From Prorocentrum cordatum (lineage: Eukaryota): DNA of 41,543 nucleotides. Both the position numbers and the translations under genes were made by a program. Positions within the stretch are counted from its first letter, which is position 1, and the number at the start of each line of letters is the position of its first letter. The notes under the pieces are model-generated. The model made no database searches, was not told the DNA's origin, and was given only the letters and a program-made list of their open reading frames with translations. The DNA is taken from contig CAUYUJ010000314.1 in NCBI GenBank assembly GCA_963575745.1, forward strand, positions 620,001-661,543, written 5' to 3'. Below are positions 1-36,762 of the stretch, in pieces.

Positions 1-797
1 TCTTTTCAGCAGCTGCGCCTCGCCGAGAGCGTTTGGAGGATGCCCAGATCGTCCCGAAGTGCCGCCCGAGAGCCGAGTTATGGCCCGAAAGCCCGTGATC
101 ACCAGTAGGGTGGGGATAGGCTCAGGGGGGTATGGCCCGATAGCCCACCCCGCCCAGGAACGTGGCATTCGCAATCGAGGGCGCATCGCCGACCTATGGG
201 CGATGTATCGCCGATTCGAGGTCGATGCCCCCCCTAAGCCAGTCTCCCTTATCGCTCCCCCTCTAACCTCACAGCAGGCAGCGAAGTACGCAAGACGCAG
301 CTTGCTCCAGGTAGCATCGGCACAGATCTCTTCATCTCCCTCTGTTCGCTGTTCTCTCTATCCATGCTGTGCTCTGCCCCGTCCTCGTCTGCTCATTCCG
401 TGCTCTCTCTCTCTCTGTTTTTCTGACTGTACCTGATGGCCTTCGGCCCATCCCGCCGTGCCTGGGTTGTGGGTTGGTATGAAGCCTATTGGATTTTCCG
501 TTGGGATCTCGTGGGAGGCCTCCCGGGGGCCTCTTGGAGGCACTTTTGAGGTATCTTGAGGGTCGTTTTGGGGTCTCTTTTGGGCCTCTCGGGGGCCTCT
601 TGGGGGACTCTTCCGGGCCTCTTGGGGCCCTCTTGGACACCTCTTGGGCCGTCTTGGGGTGGTCTTGGGAGCCTTTTGGGAGAACAGGCGAGACCGCCAA
701 AATCCTTTAATGAGTCAGGGAAATCAATGATTGGAGAGGCCTGACGGCCGGTGCCGCCGACCCTGATCGAAAGGGCTAGGAGTGGGGGGAGGAAGCG

Positions 798-953
798 GAG
801 GAGGAGGAGGAGGAGGAGGAGGAGGAGGAGGAGGAGGAGGAGGAGGAGGAGGAGGAGGAGGAGGAGGAGGAGGAGGAGGAGGAGGGAGGAGGAGGAGGAG
901 CAGGAGGAGGAGGAGGAGGAAAAGGAGGAGGAGGAGGACCAGGAGGAGGAGGA
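798..953. repeat. (GGA)n microsatellite
   Basis: Direct reading. Confidence 0.97.
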
Positions 954-1704
954 AGTGCATCCCGTGCGTGCCCGCTCGAGGAAAGTGCGCCCCGGCGGGC
1001 GTCGTATCTGCCCCGGGCCCCCCCCCCTCCCCCCCCCCTGCGGGGAAGGGATCAAAGGGAAGGGGCTTCCCTTCGACTCCACTACGACGTCGTTTAATTT
1101 CGCTTTGGATAGCGCGCTTGAGGAGGAGAGCCCTGGGAGGGGGAGAACGGAGACGACGGAGACGACGAGTCGAACGGAGAAACCCCTCACACACGCCGAC
1201 AGTGTCGGCGGATTTTTGCCTCTGGCGGCCCTCTTGGGAGGCCTCTTAGAGGCCTCATGGGGCGCCTTGGAGGCTTCTTGGGCCATCTTGAGGCCATCTT
1301 GGGCGTCTCGGAGCGATCTTTCGGCGACTCGGGGCCCTCTTGACCGTCTTGGGGCCCTCTTGGCCCGTCTTGGGGTCCTCTCGGCTCCGACAAAGTCTCG
1401 CGACAAGACGCGAGAAGCCCCGAGAGGTTTGGCAATTTTGGTTCTGGGCCTTAAGAAAGACTCCTCAGGATTGAGGGCTGAAGCTCAGGGGATTCGGCAG
1501 AGGACCTGAGGACGACCACATCGTGCCCAGAGGCAAGGTGGCGGATACCCGTCATAGTTCAGATCTTCCCGACTCTCTTCGTCTCCGTCTCGCTCCTCCC
1601 TTCTCCCTTCGCTGCAGCTCTCTTCCTCCCCCTTTCGTCCCTGAGGTTCCCAGGATGCTTGGCTGGACAGCGGGGGGCTGGTGCCCACACGAGCGTGCCG
1701 CCAG

Positions 1705-1766
1705 GTCGAGGCAAGGCCGGCCAGACGCTCCTGGACTTCAACGAGCGCACGCTGCCTCCGCCCAAG
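1705..1766 (+). CDS. hisC: Exon of histidinol-phosphate aminotransferase-like host gene (N-terminal region)
   Basis: ccag|gt cga ggc... translates (G)RGKAGQTLLDFNERTLPPPK, resembling the HisC N-terminal GR...LxLDxNE..P motif. AG acceptor at 1703-1704; AAG|GA donor at 1767. Confidence 0.65.
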
Positions 1767-2867
1767 GACAGAGGGGAGGAACGGCTGCAGGGAGTCCGAG
1801 CGCTGTGGCTTATTCAGTCCTCCTTCCCCTGCTCCTCCTCCTTCCCCTGCTCCACCTCCTCCTCCTTTTCCTCCTACTCCCGCTCCTTCCGCTGCTGCTG
1901 CTGCTCCTCCTCCTCTTCCTCCCTCCCATCCGCGCGGCCTGTGGGAGCGTCCGGGCAGCCGCTGGACGTCTTGGGCCCCAAACGCTGCAGTAAGGACGCG
2001 GTGTGAGGGCGCAGGCTGTATGCACCGGTGCACAGATCTCCGCCACGGCACTCATGCCTGGCGTCCAGGTTCGGGCCAGACCAGGTGAGTGCGAAGTGCT
2101 ATCGTCGATGCGGGCCCCGTTGCAAGAGTCATTAGGACCACGGCTTAGGCCAAGTCATTGGCACAGCAGGTACTCGCGATGCAATGTGGGTCGACATGTG
2201 CTGACCGCATTCATGCCACATGGAGGGGACGTGAGTCGCCACCGTTTTGCGTTCGTTGCAGAAGCCCTACAGCCGTTTACGCCGACGGGAAGAAATTAGC
2301 AGCTTGGGCGCAGGAGGCGGAAGGGGGACAGGGGGCAAGGGGCAGTGGCGGCTTTGATGTGAGGGTGGAAGTCTCGTGGGCCTCGGCCCATGCCGCCACT
2401 GCGCCTGGGTCGTGGCCCAGAGAGGCCTTGTGGACACCTCGGGAGATCTTGGCGGGCTTCTTGGGGGGCTCCTGTGGGCCAGTGAAGCCACTGGGGTGCG
2501 TCTTGGGGCCTCACGGATCCTCTTGTGGGCCTCTTGTTGGCCTCTTACTCTTGTGGGCCTCGCGATCATGCTGGAGGGGTTGGCTTCCAGTGGTGCGACA
2601 GTGGCGTGCTTCTTCGGCCCCTCGTCGGCCGTCCTGGAGGCCTCTTGGGTCATGCTGGGCCGGTCTTGGGGAGATTTTGGGCCGTCTTGGACGCTCGCGC
2701 GACCGATGCGGCGAGAATGCTAAGACCACGGAGAAGCTCAAGGGCTTCCACGGATTTTTTGGCCTCCCGGGCTGGCCCCGGGGACCTCCAGAGTGGCCCG
2801 CGAGACTCCCAGGAGTGCCCTGGTTGGCCCAGAGAGGGCTCTCGGACGCCCAGGCGGCCCAAAGATA

Positions 2868-3041
2868 CAGTGGAGGCCCATGCCGAGAACGCCCTGCTTG
2901 CCTCCAGGGTGCCCTGGGTTTCTTGGGATTCGATCGTTTTGCTATGGAGTACGTGACGCTCCCACACTAAAAATCCATGGACGTCCTGGGTCTCAGAGTT
3001 GGGTTTCTTGTGGAAGGTTTCTTGTGGTCGAGCTCCTACTG
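2868..3041. mobile_element. 174-bp Tc1/mariner-type MITE, copy 1
   Basis: TA|cagtggag...ctcctactg|TA with imperfect TIRs starting CAGT; near-identical second copy at 28243-28417 with different flanks. Confidence 0.85.
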
Positions 3042-3684: not shown

Positions 3685-4228
3685 TATGTCTGTCTGTATG
3701 TATGCATGTATGTGTGTATGTATGAATGTATGTATGCATGTATGTTTGCATGCATAGATGTAGGTGTACATGTGTATGTGTGTATAATCCTTTGCATATG
3801 TATAAATATGTCTACATATATGTGTATGTATACATATGTATACGTACAGGCATATTTGTTTATATGTATATATCTACACATGTAAGGCTTTAAATGTGTA
3901 CAGCTGTGATGATAAACGTGTGCAATGTTTATACGTATTTGTATGAGTGTATGTATATGTATATGTAGAGGTATGTGTCTTGAATAGGTACATATATATG
4001 TATATGCATATGCATTTGTACATGTATATGTATATGTGTATGTATGTCGATGCAGCTCTATACGTAAATGCATATATTATTCATATATGTATTTGTATTT
4101 TTATGTATATGCGCATGTATACATATGTACAAGTAGTTGTACATGACTGTGCATGTGTAATTATATGTATATGATTATGTATATGTATATGCTTATGCAT
4201 AAACATAAATATACATGTATGTACTTGC

Positions 4229-4920: not shown

Positions 4921-6420
4921 ATCCAAGACGGCCCAAGAGGCATATAAGACGCCCAAGATGGCCTCCAAGACGGCCCTGGAGCACCCCAGGAGGGCCCAAG
5001 ATAGCGTCAGACGGGCCAGGAGCCCACCAAGACGGCCCAAGATGGCTCTAAGATGGCCCAGGAGGCCTCCCAGAGGGCCTCCAGGAAGGCCCGAAGAGCC
5101 AAACTCATTGATTTTCTTTTGGTGAGGGATTCGGGCATTTGCTTCTTTTCGGCCTTCCGACGGCGAGAGGGCCCAAGAGCTCCCAAAGATCGCCCCAAGA
5201 TCGCGCAAGAGGTTTCCAGGATGGCCCCAGAACGACCCACGAGGCCCCCAAGACGGCCCGAAAAGGGCTCCAAGACGGCCCAAGGGGCCTCCAGGACGCC
5301 CAAGATGGCCTCTAAGACGGCCCTGGAGCACCCCAAGAGGGCCCCAAGTCAGACGGGCCAGGAGCTCACCAAGACGGCCCAAGATGGCTCTAAGATGGCC
5401 CAAGACGGCCCAGGAGGCTTCCAAGAGGGCCTCGAGGAAGGCCCGAAAAGACCAACATCATTGATTTTCGTTAGGTTTTTGAAAGGTTTTGTTGGATTTT
5501 GTCATTTGCTTCTTTTCGGCCTTCCGACGGCCCGAGACGGCCCGAGAGCCTCCAAAGATCGCCCCAAGATCGCCCAAGGGGCCTCCAGGATGCCCCAGAA
5601 CAGCCCTAGAGGCCCCCAAGACATCCCCAGAAGGGCCCCAAGACGGCCCAAGAGGCCTCCAAGACGCCAAGATGGCCTCCAAGACGGCCCTGGAGCACCC
5701 CAAGGGGGCCCCAAGTCGAGGGGGGCCAGGCCGGTGCCTGTACCCTCCATGGGCGCCCACCGGTGTTTTCACGGGGGTCCCAGAGCTCTCGAGAAGGCCC
5801 TGGCCCGCCCCATAACGGGCCACGACAGGCTAAGGGGGTCCCAAGAGGGCCCAAGACAGTTCCAAGAGGCCCCGAAGACGCCCAAGATGCCCTCAAGGCG
5901 GCCGACGAGGACCCCAACACGCTCAAGGACGGCCTCAAGAGGCTCCCCAAGAGGGTCCTCGGAGGCAGAATTCATACATTGTTCGAGGTTTTTTGGAGGA
6001 TTTTGGCGTTCTCGCTTTTCCCGCTTACCGATGCTCCCTCACGGCCTCGGAGGCCCTTCAGATCGCTCCAAGACGGCCAACGGGGCCCCGAAGAGGGCCC
6101 CAAGACGGCCCAGGAGGCTCCCCAGACAACCCAAGTGTGCCCCACGAGCGCCCCAGGAGGGGGCCCAGAGGGGGACCGCGAACGGATATTTTGAGGTCTC
6201 TGGCCCTAGAGGCCCCCAGTAGGCTCCCAGAGGCCACCAAGAGGCTCCCAAGAAGCCCCGTGAGACCCCCGTGAGGCCCCCAGGAAGCCCCAAGAGGCCC
6301 CCAAGGGGCTTCCAGGGAACGCCCAAGAGGCCCCCCAACACGCCCCAACAAGTCATGTCCCCAGAAGGCCTTCGGGGACATGGTTCATCATGGGCCCGAG
6401 AGCCTCCGGAGGCTCCGAAG
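4921..6420 (+). repeat. ccaagacggcccaagaggcctc-type dispersed low-complexity repeat family
   Basis: Dense ccaaga/ggccc motifs with an internal duplication of about 340-370 bp. Same family inverted at about 500-720, 1220-1430, 2420-2790, 17260-17480 and direct at 20140-21330. Confidence 0.85.
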
Positions 6421-8047: not shown

Positions 8048-8485
8048 CGGCAACACCAATCCATTTTCCCTGTGGGACCGCGCCCCCTGCTCCAGTCCAC
8101 GGCGTACCTGGTCCTGTGCAAAATCTTCGGCGCCGGCTCTTTTCTGAGCCTTCGGGCCGCCTGAGGCCCCGCCCGCCCACGCCCTGTCTCCCCAATTAGG
8201 GCTACCCGCGACCCGTTTAGCTCTTGACCGGAAGGGGCCCGCTCCCGACCCGCATACCAAAAAGTCCCACGACCGCCCGGGACAACGCGATTCGGGGACG
8301 CTAACCAGGACGCTTTTCGGCTCCCCCCTCGCGCGTTCAGCAACGATCAACAGTGAGGAAGCAGAAAACAAGACTGTAACAGTGGAAACTGGGAACTGCA
8401 ACTGGCGCAGGGAGCTGCGAGCCTAGTCTTCGCAGCCGGATGGTCCCGCAAGGGGGCCGGCGGATTTGTGCATATGTTTACATGT

Positions 8486-8507
8486 TCCGTATCAATTTGG
8501 CCTCAAG
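8486..8507 (+). other. Relic dinoflagellate spliced leader (DinoSL)
   Basis: tccgtatcaatttggcctcaag vs consensus DCCGTAGCCATTTTGGCTCAAG: 18/22 ungapped. It abuts the left TSD and lies 58 nt upstream of the ORF1 ATG at 8566. Confidence 0.8.
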
Positions 8508-8565
8508 GGTTAAGGCGACTTCAGTCAGAGTGTAAGCCTGCGCCAACTCTTCCCCTAGAGCTGCC

Positions 8566-9736
8566 ATGGCGCCGACGTGGTCCAGTGGCGACTGCGGCTC
8601 CGAGTACTGGTGGTGCTAGTGCGGCAGCTGGCAGTGGGCGCAGGAGAAGAAGTGTGCACGGTGTGGCATCACGAATAGGGGAACAAAAAGTGACATGAAC
8701 ATAAAATCTCGGAAGTCCGCGCGGATTTCTCGGATCGGCGCTGGACCCCCCTCCCTGGCGCGCGGAGCGCGCCAGGGGCGGCGCCAGAGGCGCCGCCGGG
8801 GGGCCCCGGCGCCGATCCGAGAAATCCGCGCGGATTTCCGAGTTTTTATGTTTATGCCACTTGTTGTTCTCCTAAAGAAGGCCTGGGGCCAGGTTCAGAC
8901 GCCGACCGAGTCCCAGGAGGAGGCGCTGCCGCCGTGGCAACAAAACGCCGCGGCGCGCCCCTCGCCTCCTGCTCCCGACCGCACCGGCGGCACCGACGCG
9001 GCAGCGCTACGCGGAGGAGAGCATTTCCCCGCCAGTTGTGGCCAGGCATGTGGAGAATTCGTTGGCGGCGCTGCTTGACGAGCCTTGCTGCGCAGATGCC
9101 CGCTCCTCCCTCGTGCATCCGATAGCGGAGAAGAAGCGGGCCACCACGATGTCAAAGCCGATCGCGTCCCAGCTGGCAGGTGCAGCGGCTGCCTGGGAGC
9201 GGGCTGACGTGAAGGTGGAGAGGGCCGAGACCGCGCTTGCGGCTGCCTTGGCCGACGTGGAGAGTGCGAAGGCCGCCGAGGCGAAGCTCGCATCGGAGGT
9301 CCAGGAGCTGCGGGCGAAGGTCACCCAGAGCCAGCAGCCCGACGCGGATAGCATAACGAACATGATGAGTGGCATGGCGACTGTGCTGGAAGACGTGAAG
9401 AAGTTAGGCCGCGTTGCGCCTGAGATCATGGCCGGAGCGGAGCAGGCGATGGCCAAGCTCGTCTCGGACATCGAGGAGGTGGCCAGTCGTGCTCAGGCGC
9501 AGGGCGCTCGGGCGTCGGAGGTCCGAGTGCCGACGATGGGCGACGCTCTTGGTCGCCGTCTGAGGCGCGCCGCATCGGAGACGCCGCGTCGTCGTGGTCA
9601 CGCTGCTGCAGGTCAGCCCGTGCCGAGGTTCCCGTTGCGCGCCGGGAATGGCGCCGCAGCCGCGGCGTATGGCGCTGCCGCCCCTGGAGATCGCAGCCGT
9701 TCTCCCCTTGGCGGCGGCGCGGTTGGTGGCGAGTGA
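8566..9736 (+). pseudogene. LINE ORF1 (N-terminal Cys4 RanBP2-like zinc finger, Ala/Glu-rich coiled coil, C-terminal RSRSP), disrupted
   Basis: MAPTWSSGDCGSEYWWC*CGSWQWAQEKKCARCG, then a MITE insertion, then heptad-like AETALAAALADVESAKAAEAKLASEVQELRAK (ORF 9038-9736). Confidence 0.65.
8678..8872. mobile_element. 195-bp foldback MITE flanked by TA, inserted in LINE ORF1
   Basis: Arms ggggaacaaaaagtgacatgaacataaaatctcggaagtccgcgcgg... and ...ccgcgcggatttccgagtttttatgtttatgccacttgttgttctcc are inverted repeats of about 65-70 bp with about 6 mismatches in the first 64 bp; TA at 8676-77 and 8873-74. Confidence 0.85.
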
Positions 9737-9772
9737 CTTGCGGCGGGTGCAGGGTCCAGCGATGGCATCGAC

Positions 9773-12700
9773 GTGAGAGTGGCCACCGCGAACGTGCAGA
9801 CCCTGCGCCCAAAGCGCGACGAATTCATGATTGCCCAAGTAAGTGGAGAGACGCTGGTGGGGGATATCCAGCTTCTCGAACATCAATGTGATGAGCGCGA
9901 GCTCCGGATAGTCGGTGTCCAGGAAGGGCGTGCCAAGAGTGACCGCGTTCGAGGCGGTACCTATTATGAGCAGTGCATTACGCAGAGCACGCCTGAGGGG
10001 GAACTAGGTGTGCAGATCTGGATTCATACTAAGTTGAATGTGTCAGCATGTTGTGGTGCGCAGGTCTCATCGTTTGATGTGCACTGTGGGCAATTTGCAG
10101 CACTCCGAGGGGGCGTTGGCCGTGGTCGCTCACGCCCCCACTTCTTTTTCGTCGCTGGCCGAGCTGGAGACCTTTTGGGCTGAGGTCGATAGCGTCCACT
10201 CGTGGCTCGCTCAGGAGTACAACGATGCATGCATATTAAATTTGTCGGACGCCAACGGCCGCCTCGGTCCCGAGGGATCTGTGGGAGTGAGTGCGCGTCA
10301 GGATCCCAACGCGGAGGGCGACGACAGCAATGGCACGTTCTTGCGCGCCCATGCCGATACTAACCATAGGTTCGTTCTCAACACTTTCGGCGAGTACGAG
10401 ACGACGTGGAGGTCACGGCGACGTGGGGGTCAGCACGGTCTCGCATCGACTATAACTTGTGCAGTGGCAGGCGGCTTCCCTCCTTTCGGCGAGCATGGGT
10501 GGACGCGAGCGCCGACTTCGCTCTGTCCACTTACGTCGACCACAAACTCGTGATAGCGTTGCTGGAGAACGTGTTCTGTTCACTGAGCTTGCCAAACACG
10601 CTGCCCCGAAGTGCCGAGTGAATAATTTAGCGCTGGCCGAGCCGCGCTAGCGTGAGCAGTTCCAGCAGAATATGTGCCGGTCCCAGGCTCGAGCCAAATT
10701 GGATCTCGAGCGCCGCGCGGCCAGGTGCGCGGCCATCACGAGGAAGGGCGCGATCGAGACCTTCGGCCGTGCCGAGAAGGTCCCGAGGGAGCCGTGGACA
10801 CCTCGGCGGACGTGGGCAGTGCTGCGGCATTTTGCTCCCGCCAGGGGCCTTACCCACTCGTGCTTGCAACTTGCGCGCCTGCAGTGGAGAGTGGTGTGCT
10901 CCTTCCGGTGGGCGTCGGTGCTGGCGGAGACCTTTCCCGTGCAAGACAAGAGCGCTACCTCTGGGAATCCTGCGCGAGACAGAAAACATTACCTTTGGGA
11001 GGCCTGCGCATGACAAGAACGCTACCTACGGAATGCCCGCGCAAGACAAAAACACGTTACCTTTGGAATGCCCGCACAAGACAACAACGTTACTTATGGA
11101 AGGCCTGCGCAAGACAGGAACGTTACCTCAGGAAGGCCTGCTCAAGACAAGAACGTTACCTCTTGATGGCCTGCGCGAAACAAAAACGTTACCCATGGAA
11201 GGCTTGCGCAAGACAGAAACGTTGCCTCTGGCCCTTCCGGCTACCCTTGCCGTTGCACCGGTGCCAAGGTATGCCGCGCCCCTGCAGCGGCTGTGGCTGC
11301 GCAGCGCGACGGTCGCGCTGCCGTGAGGTTGTGGCGCATGATCGACGCCGGCGGCCGTGCTGCGTCAGCCGGCCCGCGCAACTTCGCGCGCGAGGACCGC
11401 CGTGAGTTTCTGGAGCGGAAAGCGCTGGAGGCCCAGGAGGCAGCGTGCAGGAACGACACCCAGACCACATTTGTCATCGTTCGGCAGCTCGGTGGCAAGT
11501 CAGCCAGCAGCGACCAGTCCATCCGTGATCGCGATGGCGTGTTGGTGGAGTCGTCGGATCTCCGTGAGGCGCGCTGGGAGGAGCACCTTTGTGACGTGTT
11601 CCAGGGCCAGACCGTCGACAGCGTCGGGCACATCCCGACGACCGCCAGCATGATGTGCAGCGAGGCCACGGCTGCTGTCCCGCCTCCTTCGCTGTTCCGT
11701 CCATCCGTTGTGGCTGAGAGTATGAAGAACATGAAACGTAACAAAGGAGTTGGTATCGATGGAGCCCCTGTCGACGTGCTGCAAACCGCTGGTGACGCAG
11801 CCGCTGTGAAGATATCGGACACTGGACAATTCGTCGAAGCTCAGCGCGGCTGGCCGTCTGCGTGGAAAGGCGGCAAGATCGTAGACGTCTACAAGCGCAA
11901 AGGCGACAATGCGATATGCGATAACAGCCGGGGCATTTTGTTGCTGGATTGTACCTTCAAAGTGTTATTTGGTATTCTTATGTGCTCGGTGACCACCATG
12001 TACCCGCTGCAGTTGCCCGCGTCCCAGTTTGGAGCAGTGCCGCACGGTGGCTGCGATATCGCTTCCCGTTAACTTCTGGCGGCAAATGATCTTGCATTGC
12101 TGAAATCTTTATCGATCTTCTTTCTATGTTTAAAAGCATGGCGAAGGCATTCGATATAATCGCGCGCGAGATAGCGTTTGGCTTCACCCCCGAGAGTGCG
12201 AAGGACCCAATTTCACATCTTCGATCTCTCGGTCTTTCTGAACGTCAGGCATGCTGGACTTCAGAATTCTTGAAAACACAGAGTCCGGTCCTGCAGAGAT
12301 GGAGGCTGGACCCGCTCGTGATTGAGTTGCTCTTCGGCGCCCGACATGGGCCATGGTTTGCCTGTGGCGCTCGAACGTCGCGAGTGATCGCGCAGAAAGG
12401 TGGGCGTCAGGGCTGCCAGTCGGGCGCCTGCGTCTTCAACGCTGTATATTCTGTTGGGCTGATTCTGCTGCGCATTTCCATGAGCGCGGCGGGCATTGGA
12501 TTCTGTGTCAGGCGCAGCTCTGATGTATTCTGGTGTGGCGAGCCCGTCGGTCCCGAGGAGGAGTTCGTAGATATGACGTTCGTCGGTGATGAATGCATTG
12601 TTCTGCTCGCCGACTCCGCTCGCAAACTATCGAACGCCATGCGCGTGCCGCTGGAATTGTTGGCGCTCACATTCGGCGTGCTGGATTTGAAGGTCAACTT

Positions 12701-13832
12701 TGAGCCGGGCAGGACAGAGGCGATGATTCACTTCCGAGGCCATCATGCTACATGCTGCTGGGGAGAGTTTGTCTCGGCTGATGGGACGCGCATGCCATTG
12801 TCAAAGTCGGAATTCTTGAACGAGGATCAGACGAATGTGCGCGTGGTGAAGTTGCGCAAGCACCTTGGTGCAACAGTAGCGGCAGATAAGTATGATGTTC
12901 CCGACGCGAAGCATAAGTGTCAGATTGCGATGCTGGCGTTCGTCCCAATCTCAAAGAAGATTATTGGGAACCAGAAGCTTGCGCTTCATCTTCGCCTCGT
13001 TCTTGCTGGTGCTCCCGTGTTCAGCCGACTGCTGTGCGGCGCCTGCATCCTCGACCCGTCCATCCAGTTCACGAGGCAGTTAAATGGAGTATTCCTGCGA
13101 GTGTATTGTTATTTATGGTCAGCTTCGCCATTGTCGAGTTGTACCTGACCATCTGTTTCGTGCTGGACACTGCGTCCCGAGCCTAGATTGTTTACTAGCG
13201 CGTGAGAGGTTGTTATATCTGAAGAGGCTGCTCGCCCACGGTCCCGAAATGTTGAAAGCGTTGCTTGCACAGAGGGGCACTGGTGACTGCATGGTGCGAT
13301 GGAGTTCGCGGATTCGGAAAGATATGGAGTTTCTCAGAGATCTGGTGCTACCTGAGATGCCTGAGTTGAAAAACGTGAGCAAATTGGTGCAAGTCATCAG
13401 CTCTGAGAAATGGGCCCAGCATGTAGAGCGTTTGTATTTTTGCACCTCTGTGCTAAATAGCGCGCCTAGTGTCAGCGCGAGTGTCGAGCAGCACGTGTGT
13501 GCATAATGCCACTTATTTTAGCTCCTCCAAAGCGCTTGCACAGCATGCCCGTATCAAACAGAAAGCGCGAAATCAAATGTGAGTGTGCGCGTTTGCCGAT
13601 TGCCGTTGCCGTGCATGTGATACTGTTTTCTCGAATCGTTGGTGTTTGATTCGCCACCTGTAGGGAACGCATGATCTGTATGGAAGTCCCCCCTTTCACT
13701 GGCCCCGAGCTCGAGAGCCTTGATCGCGAGGAGGCTGAATCCAGCCGTCTTGCGAGAAGGGAAGGCCACTCACAAGCCCAACCGATTAGACCTGCCCCAA
13801 AGAATGGCAAGCTGGTCGGGTGGATTAGCTAG
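9773..13832 (+). pseudogene. LINE ORF2: APE endonuclease, reverse transcriptase, two C2H2 zinc fingers; multiple frameshifts and stops
   Basis: Endonuclease motifs ATANVQTL, GVQEGR, AHAPT, DANGRLG, LNTF, RIDY, DHKLV. RT motifs KGVGIDG, YKRKGD..CDNSRGILLL, QFG, AKAFD, GGRQGC, FVGD (decayed YADD site), KHLG. C-terminal HVCA*CH..FSSSKALAQH and CRACDTVFSNRWCLIRHL. Confidence 0.93.
10942..11231 (+). repeat. 33-bp minisatellite (about 9 copies) in the LINE endonuclease-RT linker
   Basis: Unit approximately caagacaagaacgttacctctggaaggcctgcg; one frame reads KTxTLPxEGLR repeats. Confidence 0.9.
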
Positions 13833-13982
13833 CGAACCGAGCAGATGTATACAAACGTGAGACATCCTGAGGATATCCTTGCTGGAAAAATATGTACACA
13901 TGTTTCCCAATCAGAGCTTGCTTCTGTGGGCGTCTTAGTGGATTCATATGTGTAGGTGATCTACGTGGCCGATTTCGGTGGC

Positions 13983-14592
13983 CGGCCCGGGTGCCACGCG
14001 TGCCGGGGTGCCCGGATGCCCGGGTGCCCGGGTGCCCGGGTGCTGGGGTGCTCAGGTGCCCGGGTGCCCGGGTACCCAGTAGCCCTATAGCCCTATAGCC
14101 CTACTATAGCCCTATAGCTTTATAGCCTTATAGCCATATAGCCCTATAACCCTACAGTCCCCATAGCTTTATAGCCCTAATAGGTCTGTAGCCCTATAGC
14201 CCTATAGCCCTATGGCCCTAATAGCTTTATCGCCCGATAGCTCTATAACCCTACAAACCTATAGCCCTACGGTCCTATAGCCCTATGGTCGTATAGCCCT
14301 ATGGTCCTATAGCCCTATAACCCTACAGCCCTATACCCCTACCCTATAGCTCTATAGCCCCATAGCCCTGTAGCCCTATAGCCCCTTCGCCCTATAGTTA
14401 TACATGTCTATAGTCATCATAGCCTTAAAGCCCTATAACTTTATAGCCTTATAGCCCACAGCCCTATAGCTCTATAGCTCTACAACCCTATAGCTCTACA
14501 TGCCTATAGCCCTATAGCCCTATAGCCCTATAACCCTTTAACCCTATAGACCTATAGCCCTATGGTCCTACAGCCCTATAGCCCCATAGCCC
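13983..14592. repeat. Adjacent 8-bp satellites (gcccgggt)n then (gccctata)n
   Basis: Direct reading; the unit switches at about 14080. Confidence 0.9.
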
Positions 14593-14629
14593 GAAGCCCA
14601 AAATATATTTTGATGGTTCTCTCCGGTAT

Positions 14630-15122: not shown

Positions 15123-17770
15123 GTGCCTGCGGCAAGTCCCGCCGCTGTGTCAGCGCAGCCCCCTCTGTGGCGACCCGTCGAGATGCAGAGGGCCGCACCA
15201 CGTGACACGGTCTTTGCGCAGGCCCCGGCAGCCGTGACAAGTGCCTTGGTCTTCGCCTGGGCCCGCAGAGCTGCAACACGCGACGCCCGAGAGGGCCGTA
15301 GCACGCAACAGATCGCCTCCCCAGTCTAGGGAGAGCCGTGCCCTTTGGTCAGCACCCCGACTGCCGCGGCCACTGACGGGCTCAACAGGGGTTCGAGGCA
15401 CGTGCAACCAATCACGGCGCTGCCTGGGACCGCCGCAGGCCGAGCTTGTTCGAAGACAAAGACTTTGTTTTTTTGATCTGCGGGGCGAGAGCGAACCTCT
15501 TCCGCTGAAAGCTAAGCGGGACGCGCACAGCTGTAATTAGCAGAGAAAGGGCGAAAGAAGGCGGGGCCTCACGGCGGCCGGGAGAGGGCGAAGCCCTGGG
15601 ATCAGGCGGTGCCGAAGATGACGTGCAGGAAAAGGTACACCTTGGACAGGAGCCCGGTGGCGAAGTCCCGGGCCCGAAGACAAAGACACGGCATATAGAG
15701 ATACGCTTCTGGAGCTCGGACCTCTGACCTCTCCGAGCTCCGGCAGCTCCTGCCGATGCTGCTCTGCCCGCAGAGGCGGGCGCCCGCTCCACGGGGTGCG
15801 GGCCTGGCCAGTCCGACCCCCGCTCGCTGCCAGTGGCCAGCCGAGTGGCGGGACTGCCGGTCGGCTGTGCAGGCTCGGCGTCGGCGCCGGACTGCCTCTC
15901 GGGCCTGTGGCCGTGGGCCCTCGGGGCTGGCTCGCCCGCCGCCGCGGCCGCGAGGGCTGCCCGTGGCTGTCGGCGCCGCAGTCGCTGCTGATGCCAGCGA
16001 GCGTCGTGCAAGATGCCGGCGCCTGCCTGCTGTCCGTCATGAAGGGAGCGGGTCCTGGCGGGGTCCGTCGCCGTTTTTGGGGCGCCCCAGGGGCTTGTCG
16101 GAGAACTGCTCAGGACGAAGGCCTGGTCCTGGGGGAAGGCCCCGGGGTCCAGGACCCACTTGAGCGACGGAAGACACGGGGTCGTCTTCACCGACATTGG
16201 CGCGCAAGCTGCCAGCGTAAGGTCGCGCGTAAGCGCCCTCGTTTCCAGTGTAGCGTGCCGCGCTGGTGGCCCGCGTAAGCCGCCGCGTAAGACCCGTAAG
16301 ACACGTTTCCTTGGCATTGCTCGGACGTTTGAACTTCTTTTCGGCGAGGTCCATCGAGGAGCCCTTTGCGCCATCTTGCGAGAAGAGACGCACGAAGCCG
16401 AGAAGTGCACGGGGAATGGACGTCCGAGCGATGGCGAGTTTTCTGATCGTCGCTCCGTTCCCTCGTGCCATTGAGGTGGGTGCCGAAGTGCGGCTCGCGC
16501 GGGGCGAGCGCCGCCGCGAGCGGTCGTCGAGCCTGGAGGTCGCTGCGAATGGGAGGTCCCCGAGCCCGAGGGCGAGAGCACGCTTCTTCGGCTGCTCGTG
16601 GTCGCAGGTGACTTTTCTCCCCCAATCCCCGAGCTTCGCCGGAAAAGTATGACCTCTCAGAAAAAGAGGGAAACCCTGGGATACACCCCAAGGAGGCTAT
16701 TCGGACGCACCACTATCGAGGATGAACGCCCCCCAATCGTATATCCCAGGGTTGGGGCTCAAATTTCTGCTTCATGCGAAAACCCCACGATGTCTGGGAT
16801 AGGGGTCGACATATGCCCTGTTATGTGGGAGCGACCCTTTGCCGCAGGGACCTGTCGGCGCGGGCCCGCTGGGATCCCCCGATCGTGGACTGCGCATTCA
16901 GCGATCGGCGATGCGCCCCCTCGGCGATGCACGCGCTGCCCGGATCAGCAGTTCGCCGACCGAGAATTGTGAAGTATTTTCTGACATGGCCACTTGTTTT
17001 TTTTAGATCTCAGGTCGATGATCGCGCAACGCAACCACATGCGTTGCGAGAGCAGCGGCTGGCGTGGCTCGGTGTGGCCCCCGTGCGTGCCCCCGAAAGC
17101 CGTGCGCCAAAGGTCATTTTTGCCTGGGGTCACTCTTGCGTGTAGCCGACTCTTGTGGGCCCAGAGACGTCCCCGGGGCGTGCGACGAGCTGCTGGACGA
17201 AAGAGGGTGACAGGCAGGACACATGGTAAATCATTTCTTTTCAAATGATTTTTGGTTCGAGGGCCTCCTGGAGGACCTTCTGGATGCCTCCTTCCGCGTC
17301 CCTTGGAGCTTCTTGGGCGCCTCTCGGGGTCTTCCTGAACGCTGTCGGGTCCTGCTTGATTGAGCTGGCAGCCTTGGACGCCTTTGTGGGCCCGTCTTGG
17401 ACATCGCCTCGGATACCCGTTGAGGGGGCGTAGACCGCGCAGGAGGCTTTGGGATGCCTGGGGGCCTCGGGAGATACGGGATGCACGCGCCTGGATGGCA
17501 GCGGGAGGGGGCCCTCTGAAAGCCACGAAACCGAGTCGGACAGCCCAGTCTGTTCTACAAGGGCTCCCTCGAGGGCGCGAAGTTATTCGCGCTTCGCGCT
17601 TCGCGGTCCTCGTTCCTTCTCCCCCTCCTCCTCGTCCTCCTATTCTCCTTCTGGGAGGGCGGCGCGAGAGCGCGAAGTTATTCGCGCTTCGCGCTTCGCG
17701 CAGCGCGAAGCGCGAAGTTGGGAGCCCTAGGTTCTACCACTCCGCAACGCGCCGTGGAGCGCCGTGGCGG

Positions 17771-28224: not shown

Positions 28225-28754
28225 GAGGAACAAATCGGCATACAGTGGAGGCCCATGCCAAGAAACGCCCTGCTTGCCTCCAGGGTGCCCTGGGTTTCTT
28301 GGGATTCGATCGTTTTGCTATGGAGTACGTGACGCTCCCACACCAAAAATCAGTGGACTTCCTGGGTCTCAGAGTTGGGTTTCTTGTAGAAGGTTTCTTG
28401 TGGTCGAGCTCCTACTGTATGAACACGAACTCTCGGAGCTCCGTGCGGATCTCATGGATCGGCGCTCGAGCCCCCTGCGCGCCTGCGCGCACGGGAGGGG
28501 GTCCAGCGCCGATCCAAGAATTCCCCGCGGAGCTCCCAAAGTTCAATGTTCCCTGAGATCCGATGGCGCGGAAAAACCCGATTGACCACCGGAAGTCCTA
28601 GACCCCATCGTTCTGCGCCATTTTTTTCGAGCCAGATCGATCTGTGATGGTCCCAGCTGGCGAAAGCGCCCAGCTCGAACAAAAATGAGACGCCAGGATG
28701 CAGCGCCGATCCAAGATTTCCTCGCGGAGCTCCAATAGCTTTTGGTTCTGCTTA
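28225..28754. mobile_element. Relative of the 8678-8872 foldback family, interrupted by the CAGT MITE; right end uncertain
   Basis: Removing 28243-28419 gives gaggaacaaatcggcatatgaacacgaactctcggagctccgtgcggatctcatggatcggcgct, which aligns to the 8678 arm. Inverted arms cagcgccgatccaaga occur near 28504 and 28701. Confidence 0.6.
28243..28417. mobile_element. 175-bp Tc1/mariner-type MITE, copy 2
   Basis: Same sequence and termini as 2868-3041, flanked by TA on both sides. Confidence 0.85.
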
Positions 28755-36740: not shown

Positions 36741-36762
36741 TCCGTGGCAATTTTGGCTCAAG
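36741..36762 (+). other. Relic dinoflagellate spliced leader (DinoSL)
   Basis: tccgtggcaattttggctcaag vs TCCGTAGCCATTTTGGCTCAAG: 20/22 ungapped. Confidence 0.9.

Follow-up and report, generated by a model that had tools for sequence, protein, structure and literature searches.

A dinoflagellate LINE that begins with a spliced-leader relic and was probably copied from a trans-spliced RNA

The 5' end of the window element

A long interspersed nuclear element (LINE) was analyzed in a 41,543-nucleotide (nt) stretch of the Prorocentrum cordatum genome, referred to here as the window (assembly GCA_963575745.1, contig CAUYUJ010000314.1, positions 620,001 to 661,543 of the forward strand). Read directly from the sequence, window positions 8472-13904 hold a structurally full-length, decayed LINE copy that starts with a relic of the dinoflagellate spliced leader (DinoSL), which dinoflagellate mRNAs in general are established to receive by trans-splicing. 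As a preliminary description of this DNA had proposed, the element was probably copied from a trans-spliced, leader-capped RNA. This reading is well supported, given that four of six related elements begin with DinoSL at the homologous place and belong to separate deep lineages. The best explanation as a whole, to which a probability of roughly 0.75 is assigned, further holds that 8486-13889 is an old, single-copy, structurally complete L1-like dinoflagellate LINE and that a leader at the 5' end is a trait of its family, not an accident of a single locus.

The element lies between the 15-mers atatgtttacatgtt (8472-8486) and atatgtacacatgtt (13890-13904), which are identical at 13 of 15 positions. 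The left 15-mer leads without a gap into the 22-mer tccgtatcaatttggcctcaag (8486-8507, plus strand), which matches DinoSL at 18 of 22 positions and is the exact 5' end of the element; the last T of the left 15-mer may be leader base 1. A 5' leader of 58 nt follows (8508-8565). The duplication, the gapless relic and the 58-nt leader had all been described beforehand and were borne out. The available part of PMC7245778 prints DinoSL as DCCGTAGCCATTTTGGCTCAAG, and over its 21 specified bases the window relic has 4 mismatches. Scanning of both strands of the whole window with up to 6 mismatches returned the LINE relic, a second relic and two 6-mismatch minus-strand sites (0.85 expected); upstream of the element, no other leader-like site was found on the plus strand at this threshold. 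At 3 mismatches or fewer, none of 100 shuffles matched. A chance match to DinoSL at 8486-8507 is excluded.

TA/TG microsatellites are abundant throughout the window, and the flanking repeat was for this reason given its own control, in which none of 5074 61-nt segments drawn at random from the window held a partner for the left 15-mer at 13/15 or better. Both junctions are spanned with zero differences by contigs of a public sequencing run, X1 (8388-8538 and 13791-13952, depth about 2.3-2.5). Since X1 is possibly the sample behind the window assembly, these contigs confirm the assembly and not an independent individual. Depth in X1 was 0-4 over the LINE body vs hundreds to thousands over neighboring repeats, and no close paralogue of the element was seen in the X1 contigs, in which holes prove nothing. 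A young, high-copy family of close copies is not visible in X1, which fits the description of Suessiales LINEs as old and diverged in the available part of PMC8045281. No joint that skips the element, as expected of an empty site, was present among the 15 of 114 X1 joints listed.

The second relic of the scan, tCCGTGGCAATTTTGGCTCAAG, lies on the plus strand at 36741-36762 and has 2 mismatches; it and the LINE relic both carry A for the second C of GCCATT. It is followed by GC-rich sequence, and neither a flanking duplication, an A run nor a Pfam family in the downstream frames was found for it.

Leaders and coding frames of related elements

The reverse transcriptase (RT) piece of the window copy (12090-13145) matched 742 relatives at E <= 0.001 in a representative protein library. 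A word-index protein search returned only two relatives, P0001 (labelled Karenia brevis by its source) and P0002. Full-length relatives, in which Pfam identifies Exo_endo_phos, RVT_1 and C2H2 fingers, can be aligned with window positions 9767-13802, where endonuclease, linker, RT, C-terminal region and C2H2 succeed one another in that order. Pfam gave no RT or endonuclease match in the window's own open reading frame (ORF) pieces, so the assignment of an apurinic endonuclease (APE), RT and C2H2 fingers to the window copy rests on homology to these relatives. The preliminary description had given the element an ORF1 and an APE-RT-C2H2 ORF2; the domains stand on comparison with intact relatives, and the frames themselves are broken. 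A family profile (A1, 25 members) matched human LINE-1 ORF2p best (E 2.5e-23), followed by R2 proteins (1e-10) and then C2H2 finger proteins. On this basis the family appears to be an L1-like apurinic-endonuclease LINE with C-terminal C2H2, where the likeness to L1 is a profile match and no named clade is assigned. The features of an APE-type LINE were found, namely an RT of the type lacking long terminal repeats (non-LTR), an N-terminal apurinic-type endonuclease, and a target-site duplication with a short A tail. A single-sequence PDB search with the ORF of locus L014 (introduced below) gave no match.

Metagenome contigs were scanned by RT alignment with the pattern GGRQGC[KQ]xG[ASG], which is blind to 5' ends and to the leader. 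This yielded 26 loci with RT identity of ~26-43%; RT-based scans of the viral_contigs and genome_contigs collections returned no relative. Six of the 26 loci reach the ORF1 start (L004, L007, L008, L011, L014 and L018), and long uninterrupted ORFs are present in L004, L007, L008, L011 and L014. DinoSL was found on the coding strand in four of the six, at 21/21 in L011 and L018, 19/21 in L014 and 18/21 in L008, with a chance expectation of ~0.05 such sites in all 122,637 bases searched on both strands. The distance from the leader end to the ORF1 ATG is 64-81 nt in these four relatives and 58 nt in the window. The five leader-bearing elements (the window copy and the four relatives) form five deep branches of the RT tree, their upstream flanks are unrelated in 9 of 10 pairs, and the leader block is the best conserved stretch in an alignment of their 5' regions (A2). 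This is the pattern that the preliminary description had predicted, with most full-length copies headed by the leader behind different flanks. Taken together, the findings are those of a DinoSL-tagged retrocopy, with a leader at the 5' boundary and inside the duplication in the window, and at the homologous place in four of six relatives. The bases after the leader are gg, cc, tc, ct and ca, never the GT of the SL-RNA intron, so the exon alone was copied.

Downstream of the leader, four of the five elements carry an 8-nt motif, GTAAGCCT, at a distance of 24 nt in the window, 25 nt in L008, 17 nt in L011 and 16 nt in L014. Because the motif is common to these four 5' untranslated regions (UTRs), the UTRs are regarded as homologous and the leader as near-constant in position relative to a landmark internal to the element. 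The pattern leader-gap-GTAAGCC had 0 matches in genome_contigs and viral_contigs. The motif can be extended to GTAAGCCT(A/G)C (window 8532-8542, where it reads GTAAGCCTGCG; L008 221, L011 335 and L014 243); the TAA within it belongs to the ORF1 frame in three of the four elements. Motifs like GTAAGCCT also occur ~40 nt upstream of the leader in L014 (177-187) and upstream of the TA repeat in another of the 26 loci, L025 (~28).

No flanking duplication was found for L018 (best 9/12), and no leader in L025, which is apparently a 5'-truncated copy. Leader-encoded peptides (AILAQ and similar) were absent from the N-termini of 181 family proteins. At the 3' ends of relatives, L002 has A8 and L004 has A11, and L005 and L013 adjoin TA repeats. 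After their A runs, L002 (~4093-4135) and L004 (~5459-5505) share the same ~30 nt (gatatattaggcgacgggc...) before the flanks diverge; the elements may extend past the A run to their true 3' end, or both may have a specific target in common. In L001, a degenerate leader relic (CCGTAGCTTTGGCTCGAG, 4113-4130) lies ~280 nt past the LINE ORF stop and heads a different ORF, which appears to be a leader-tagged retrocopy directly behind a LINE.

The same six relatives share an unusual arrangement of coding starts, which was examined in the first 1.0-1.4 kb of each locus. In all six, a second ATG lies 5-8 nt past the ORF1 ATG, as ATGNN(NNN)ATGG, and opens the -1 frame, which is the ORF2 frame. This frame is stop-free across the whole of ORF1 (301-390 codons), where codon-shuffled ORF1 sequences have 6-17 stops on average (P 0.0012 for L008 and 0.0002 for the other five); the +1 frame has 2-13 stops over the same span. 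The ORF1 products are alike among the six loci (16 significant pairs), and the overlapping part of the ORF2 frame showed no protein similarity among them. Pfam gave no match on the six ORF1 regions. It seems from these sequences that the ORF2 frame is kept open and that translation enters it, perhaps through leaky scanning, at a cap-proximal ATG of its own; two starts no more than 8 nt apart close to the 5' end fit an mRNA with a short leader that is scanned from the cap. At the corresponding window positions (8566-8579), GTG stands in place of the second ATG and the frame is disrupted, which a dead copy would be expected to show. The overlapping starts are relevant to a long-standing question, the means by which ORF2 is translated; the arrangement was not found in a literature search, nor in the available part of PMC3894237.

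Origin of the leader

In the proposed mechanism, the element mRNA would receive the host spliced leader by trans-splicing, as dinoflagellate mRNAs in general do, and the element proteins would take their own mature, leader-capped mRNA as template. The element would then begin with the leader because its mature, trans-spliced mRNA had itself been the template. We infer acquisition of the leader by trans-splicing from dinoflagellate mRNAs in general and, by analogy with LINE-1 proteins, which are known to prefer their own mRNA as template, such a preference here. Target-primed reverse transcription into a TA/TG-rich site would give rise to a 15-bp duplication, the length and kind of target found for the window copy, and reverse transcription to the cap-proximal base would write the leader into each full-length copy. 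New copies would need no promoter of their own, since read-through transcription and a further round of trans-splicing close to or at the relic would allow them to be expressed again. For this promoter-free cycle with re-capping at the relic AG, which the preliminary description had put forward, the odds are judged to be slightly below even. The cycle had also been called ribozyme-free. This holds only insofar as Rfam gave no match, to a ribozyme or any other family, at E <= 1 at the 5' ends of the window element and the six loci searched; a ribozyme outside Rfam's known families may still lie there. More tentative still is the joint proposal of an ancient, dinoflagellate-wide LINE superfamily without its own promoter or ribozyme, whose cap and exact 5' end would be supplied in each generation by spliced-leader trans-splicing, whose two proteins would be initiated a few bases apart with ORF2 overprinted on ORF1, and which would be the engine of mass retroposition of leader-tagged host genes.

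Several points weigh against copying from a freshly trans-spliced mRNA. The sample of 5' ends is small (n=7), the metagenome records may be DNA or RNA in type, and it is from sequence records that we infer the trans-spliced origin. The A run of the window copy is very short and its target is microsatellite-like. L004 and L007, with intact ORFs, have no recognizable leader before ORF1, where 149 and 122 nt of upstream sequence are available; they may have longer UTRs or be leaderless source copies. The leaders of the other relatives raise the prospect of a single, ancient capture, after which the leader would have been passed on as a 5' terminus encoded by the element, with an internal promoter, a start at the first base and no new trans-splicing per cycle. 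The 22-mer would then be selected as a mimic of a trans-spliced mRNA or as a core promoter. This account is considered unlikely, and it has the following in its favor. L008 and L014 have uninterrupted ORFs of ~1650 codons, yet their leaders carry 3 and 2 mismatches. The same G-to-T change (CCGTAG to CCGTAT), by which the internal AG of the relic is lost, is present in three of five relics (window 8492, L008 180 and L014 211), and the L008 relic ends in ACG, not AAG, and so lacks the terminal AG. Retrogene relics are reported to use the internal AG as acceptor. Leader mismatches in copies with intact ORFs, together with the common G-to-T change, fit an inherited leader better than one renewed in each cycle. 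In addition, GTAAGCCT might serve as a downstream promoter element at +16 to +25, and DinoSL has been proposed as a basal promoter (Song et al. 2017, PMC5585692, in the part available). Tandem truncated relics, which according to the available parts of PMC12014239 and PMC7245778 mark repeated recycling in retrogenes, were seen in none of the five copies (leader-vs-relic alignment test, Fisher p 0.44). Taken by element, the same test gave a hint in L018 only (p 0.04). Decayed older relics were also considered as the origin of the spacer after the leader and were not significant in this test.

Inheritance of the leader is in turn opposed by L011 and L018, whose leaders are 21/21 though the sequence downstream has diverged almost beyond alignment, and by the spacing between leader and motif, which varies (16, 17, 24 and 25 nt). 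Selection, inheritance or misreading of a modified base are all possible causes of the G-to-T change, and the RT tree does not resolve the kinship of the three copies that share it. The leader variants also fit long-lived source copies whose relic drifts freely. A third explanation could be that leaders were variant, or were misread, when they were copied, by analogy with Amphidinium carterae, for which the available part of a preprint (10.1101/2024.02.20.581179) reports leader polymorphism and heavy base modification; either could yield mismatches in fresh copies.

The preliminary description had named upstream sequence shared between copies, and full-length copies lacking the leader, as observations that would count against it. 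Leaders were lacking in two of six relatives, as noted above, and shared upstream sequence was present in one of the ten pairs of flanks: window 8422-8465 and L011 238-274, which stop ~20 nt short of the leader on its upstream side, are alike at 34 of 40 nt (0/2000 shuffles, p <= 0.0005), and this too tells against a leader copied from RNA. It could indicate that the 22-mer is target DNA and the element a site-specific LINE beside leader sequences or SL RNA genes, as are SLACS, CZAR, CRE1 and NeSL-1. The TA-rich junctions of the window, L008, L011, L025, L005 and L013 also suggest a target preference. Such an origin is nevertheless highly improbable. The window duplication lies outside the leader, which must have moved with the element, 9 of 10 upstream pairs are unrelated, and neither the leader nor the 3' end is followed by an intron-like GT. 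In X1, the stretch upstream of the window leader is a separate repeat, with a depth of 500-3000 vs 0-4 for the LINE body, and a TA/TG microsatellite of ~20 nt separates it from the leader. RT identity between the window copy and L011 is only ~32%, no closer than in any other pair. The upstream likeness possibly reflects a shared kind of target.

A switch of template by the RT, from the 5' end of the LINE RNA to free SL RNA, would resemble the formation of human U6/L1 chimeras. SL RNA is abundant in the nucleus, and this general knowledge is all that speaks for such a switch, with nothing specific coming from the sequences. The 22-nt exon alone is present and the next bases are never the intron GT, the junction is fixed relative to the conserved motif in full-length copies, and the apparently 5'-truncated L025 is without a leader. 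Template switching is thus given very little weight beside copying from a trans-spliced mRNA.

Relation to known systems and remaining features of the window

Each cycle requires a LINE to restore its 5' end, for which two solutions are known, internal promoters and self-cleaving ribozymes. A 5' end supplied by the host spliced leader would, if true, be a third. The HDV-like (hepatitis delta virus-like) 5' ribozymes of R2 and L1Tc cut RNA. The Pr77 internal promoter of L1Tc/ingi gives unspliced transcripts (PMC1874656 and PMC8190864, in the parts available). Both address the same problem, that of a defined 5' end in a host that trans-splices or co-transcribes, whereas here the 5' end is the host leader. 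Dinoflagellate nuclear mRNAs are described, in the portions of the sources available, as all or nearly all trans-spliced and their genes as read through in long arrays, and in such a host a leader-based solution would arise naturally.

The trypanosomatid elements SLACS, CZAR and CRE1 and the nematode element NeSL-1 insert into SL RNA genes and have a restriction-like endonuclease. They too are non-LTR elements beside a spliced leader, but there the leader is the target. In the present family the leader lies inside the duplication, the flanks differ (9 of 10 pairs unrelated), no intron follows the leader and the endonuclease is apurinic-type; insertion into SL RNA genes was not what the sequences displayed. 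Retrogenes with DinoSL relics were reportedly described in dinoflagellates by Slamovits and Keeling in 2008. These have the same leader relic at the 5' boundary and carry tandem truncated relics, none of which were seen in this LINE family, where the tagged unit is an autonomous element with a duplication and the tag recurs across the family.

That a genomic leader relic at a 5' boundary marks reverse transcription of a trans-spliced mRNA is already set out in the available parts of Song et al. 2017 (PMC5585692) and PMC12014239, and what is new here would be the application of leader-tagged retroposition to the autonomous element itself. In the part of Song et al. 2017 that was available, the gene ontology (GO) term 'RNA-dependent DNA replication' is enriched among relic-tagged genes, which was read as high expression of RT genes; RT genes with relics would therefore have been counted in bulk already. 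Supplementary tables of PMC8045281 and PMC5585692 list relic-tagged genes with RT domains, among which there may be many copies of the present kind. As far as their text was available, the retrogene papers treat RT genes as retroposed host genes and not as a 5'-end mechanism of LINEs. A full-text search, with supplementary tables and most subscription journals outside its scope, found no report of dinoflagellate LINEs that begin with DinoSL, and these were not mentioned in the available parts of PMC12014239, PMC7245778, PMC3229502, PMC6050394, PMC5585692, PMC10235124, PMC3942190, PMC8045281, PMC5890265 or PMC11453091. Leader-tagged retrogenes make up >20% of genes in some dinoflagellates, and the RT behind them is called unknown, or copia elements are favored, in the available part of PMC6050394; the LINE family described here is a concrete candidate for it.

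Other dinoflagellate LINEs with target duplications are the SymbioLINE-Dnmt elements that de Mendoza et al. 2018 (PMC5890265) describe from Symbiodinium; according to the available text, both their 5' and 3' UTRs are conserved and a poly(A) tail is absent. They have a DNA methyltransferase as the product of ORF1 and are likened to the present family by description only. The main text, as far as available, contains neither 'spliced leader' nor 'DinoSL', and a single general remark is the only place where 'trans-splic' appears. A relict dinoSL is also known from endogenous dinoRNAV elements, likewise non-host RNA copied with a leader relic nearby, and their authors suspect LINEs as the agents (PMC10235124, in the part available). 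They are passive passengers, whereas here the leader heads a LINE that could supply the machinery. Among solved structures, human LINE-1 ORF2p (PDB 8uw3, 8sxt and others) is the best match and has the same order of endonuclease and RT. The present family differs from it in having tandem C2H2 fingers in place of the cysteine-rich C-terminus of L1, a Cys4 finger in ORF1, and an ORF2 frame that overlaps all of ORF1.

The window element is a dead copy; its coding capacity is broken by stops, several frameshifts and a foldback insertion. ORF1 begins at the ATG at 8566 (MAPTW...), and its first part (8566-8675, plus strand) holds a RanBP2-like Cys4 finger, a type named by eye, in an ORF whose products are alike in the six relatives. 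A TAG at 8617-8619 interrupts ORF1 after 17 codons. The remaining, coiled-coil-like part of ORF1 (8875-9736, plus strand), with only weak coiled-coil-type Pfam matches, has a frameshift near 9075 and ends in TGA at 9734-9736. The apurinic-type endonuclease region, which is frameshifted (9767-10597, plus strand), aligns over 9785-10552 with residues 157-407 of relative P0017, where Pfam places Exo_endo_phos at 163-393 (E 7e-10). A tandem array of 8.7 copies of a 33-nt unit (10941-11231, plus strand) lies within the linker that joins the endonuclease to the RT and has no counterpart in the alignments of relatives. The RT region occupies two frames (11314-13187, plus strand) and was recognized by alignment to relatives that carry RVT_1. 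Two C2H2 zinc fingers with in-frame stops (13493-13660, plus strand) align with residues 1286-1341 of P0017, which are C2H2 by Pfam; C2H2 structures were also matched by the family profile. The frame ends at 13829 with a stop at 13830-13832. A 3' UTR of ~57 nt follows (13833-13889, plus strand), somewhat longer than the ~50 nt first estimated, and the short A run noted at the time is confirmed as 4-5 A at 13886-13890.

ORF1 is split by a secondary insertion of 199 nt (8676-8874), a foldback resembling a miniature inverted-repeat transposable element (MITE), with 76-nt arms that are 88% complementary. A relative lies at 28419-28551 of the window, and the summed X1 depth of the foldback is ~36,000 vs ~2.5 for single-copy DNA, which makes it a member of a very abundant repeat family. 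Upstream of the element, part of the repeat that precedes the leader (8074-8263) recurs in inverted orientation at 15470-15669. Directly 3' of the element, positions 13990-14600 consist of GC-rich 8-mer repeats (gtgcccgg) followed by an 8-nt satellite of the TAGCCCTA type, with summed X1 depths of thousands to tens of thousands.

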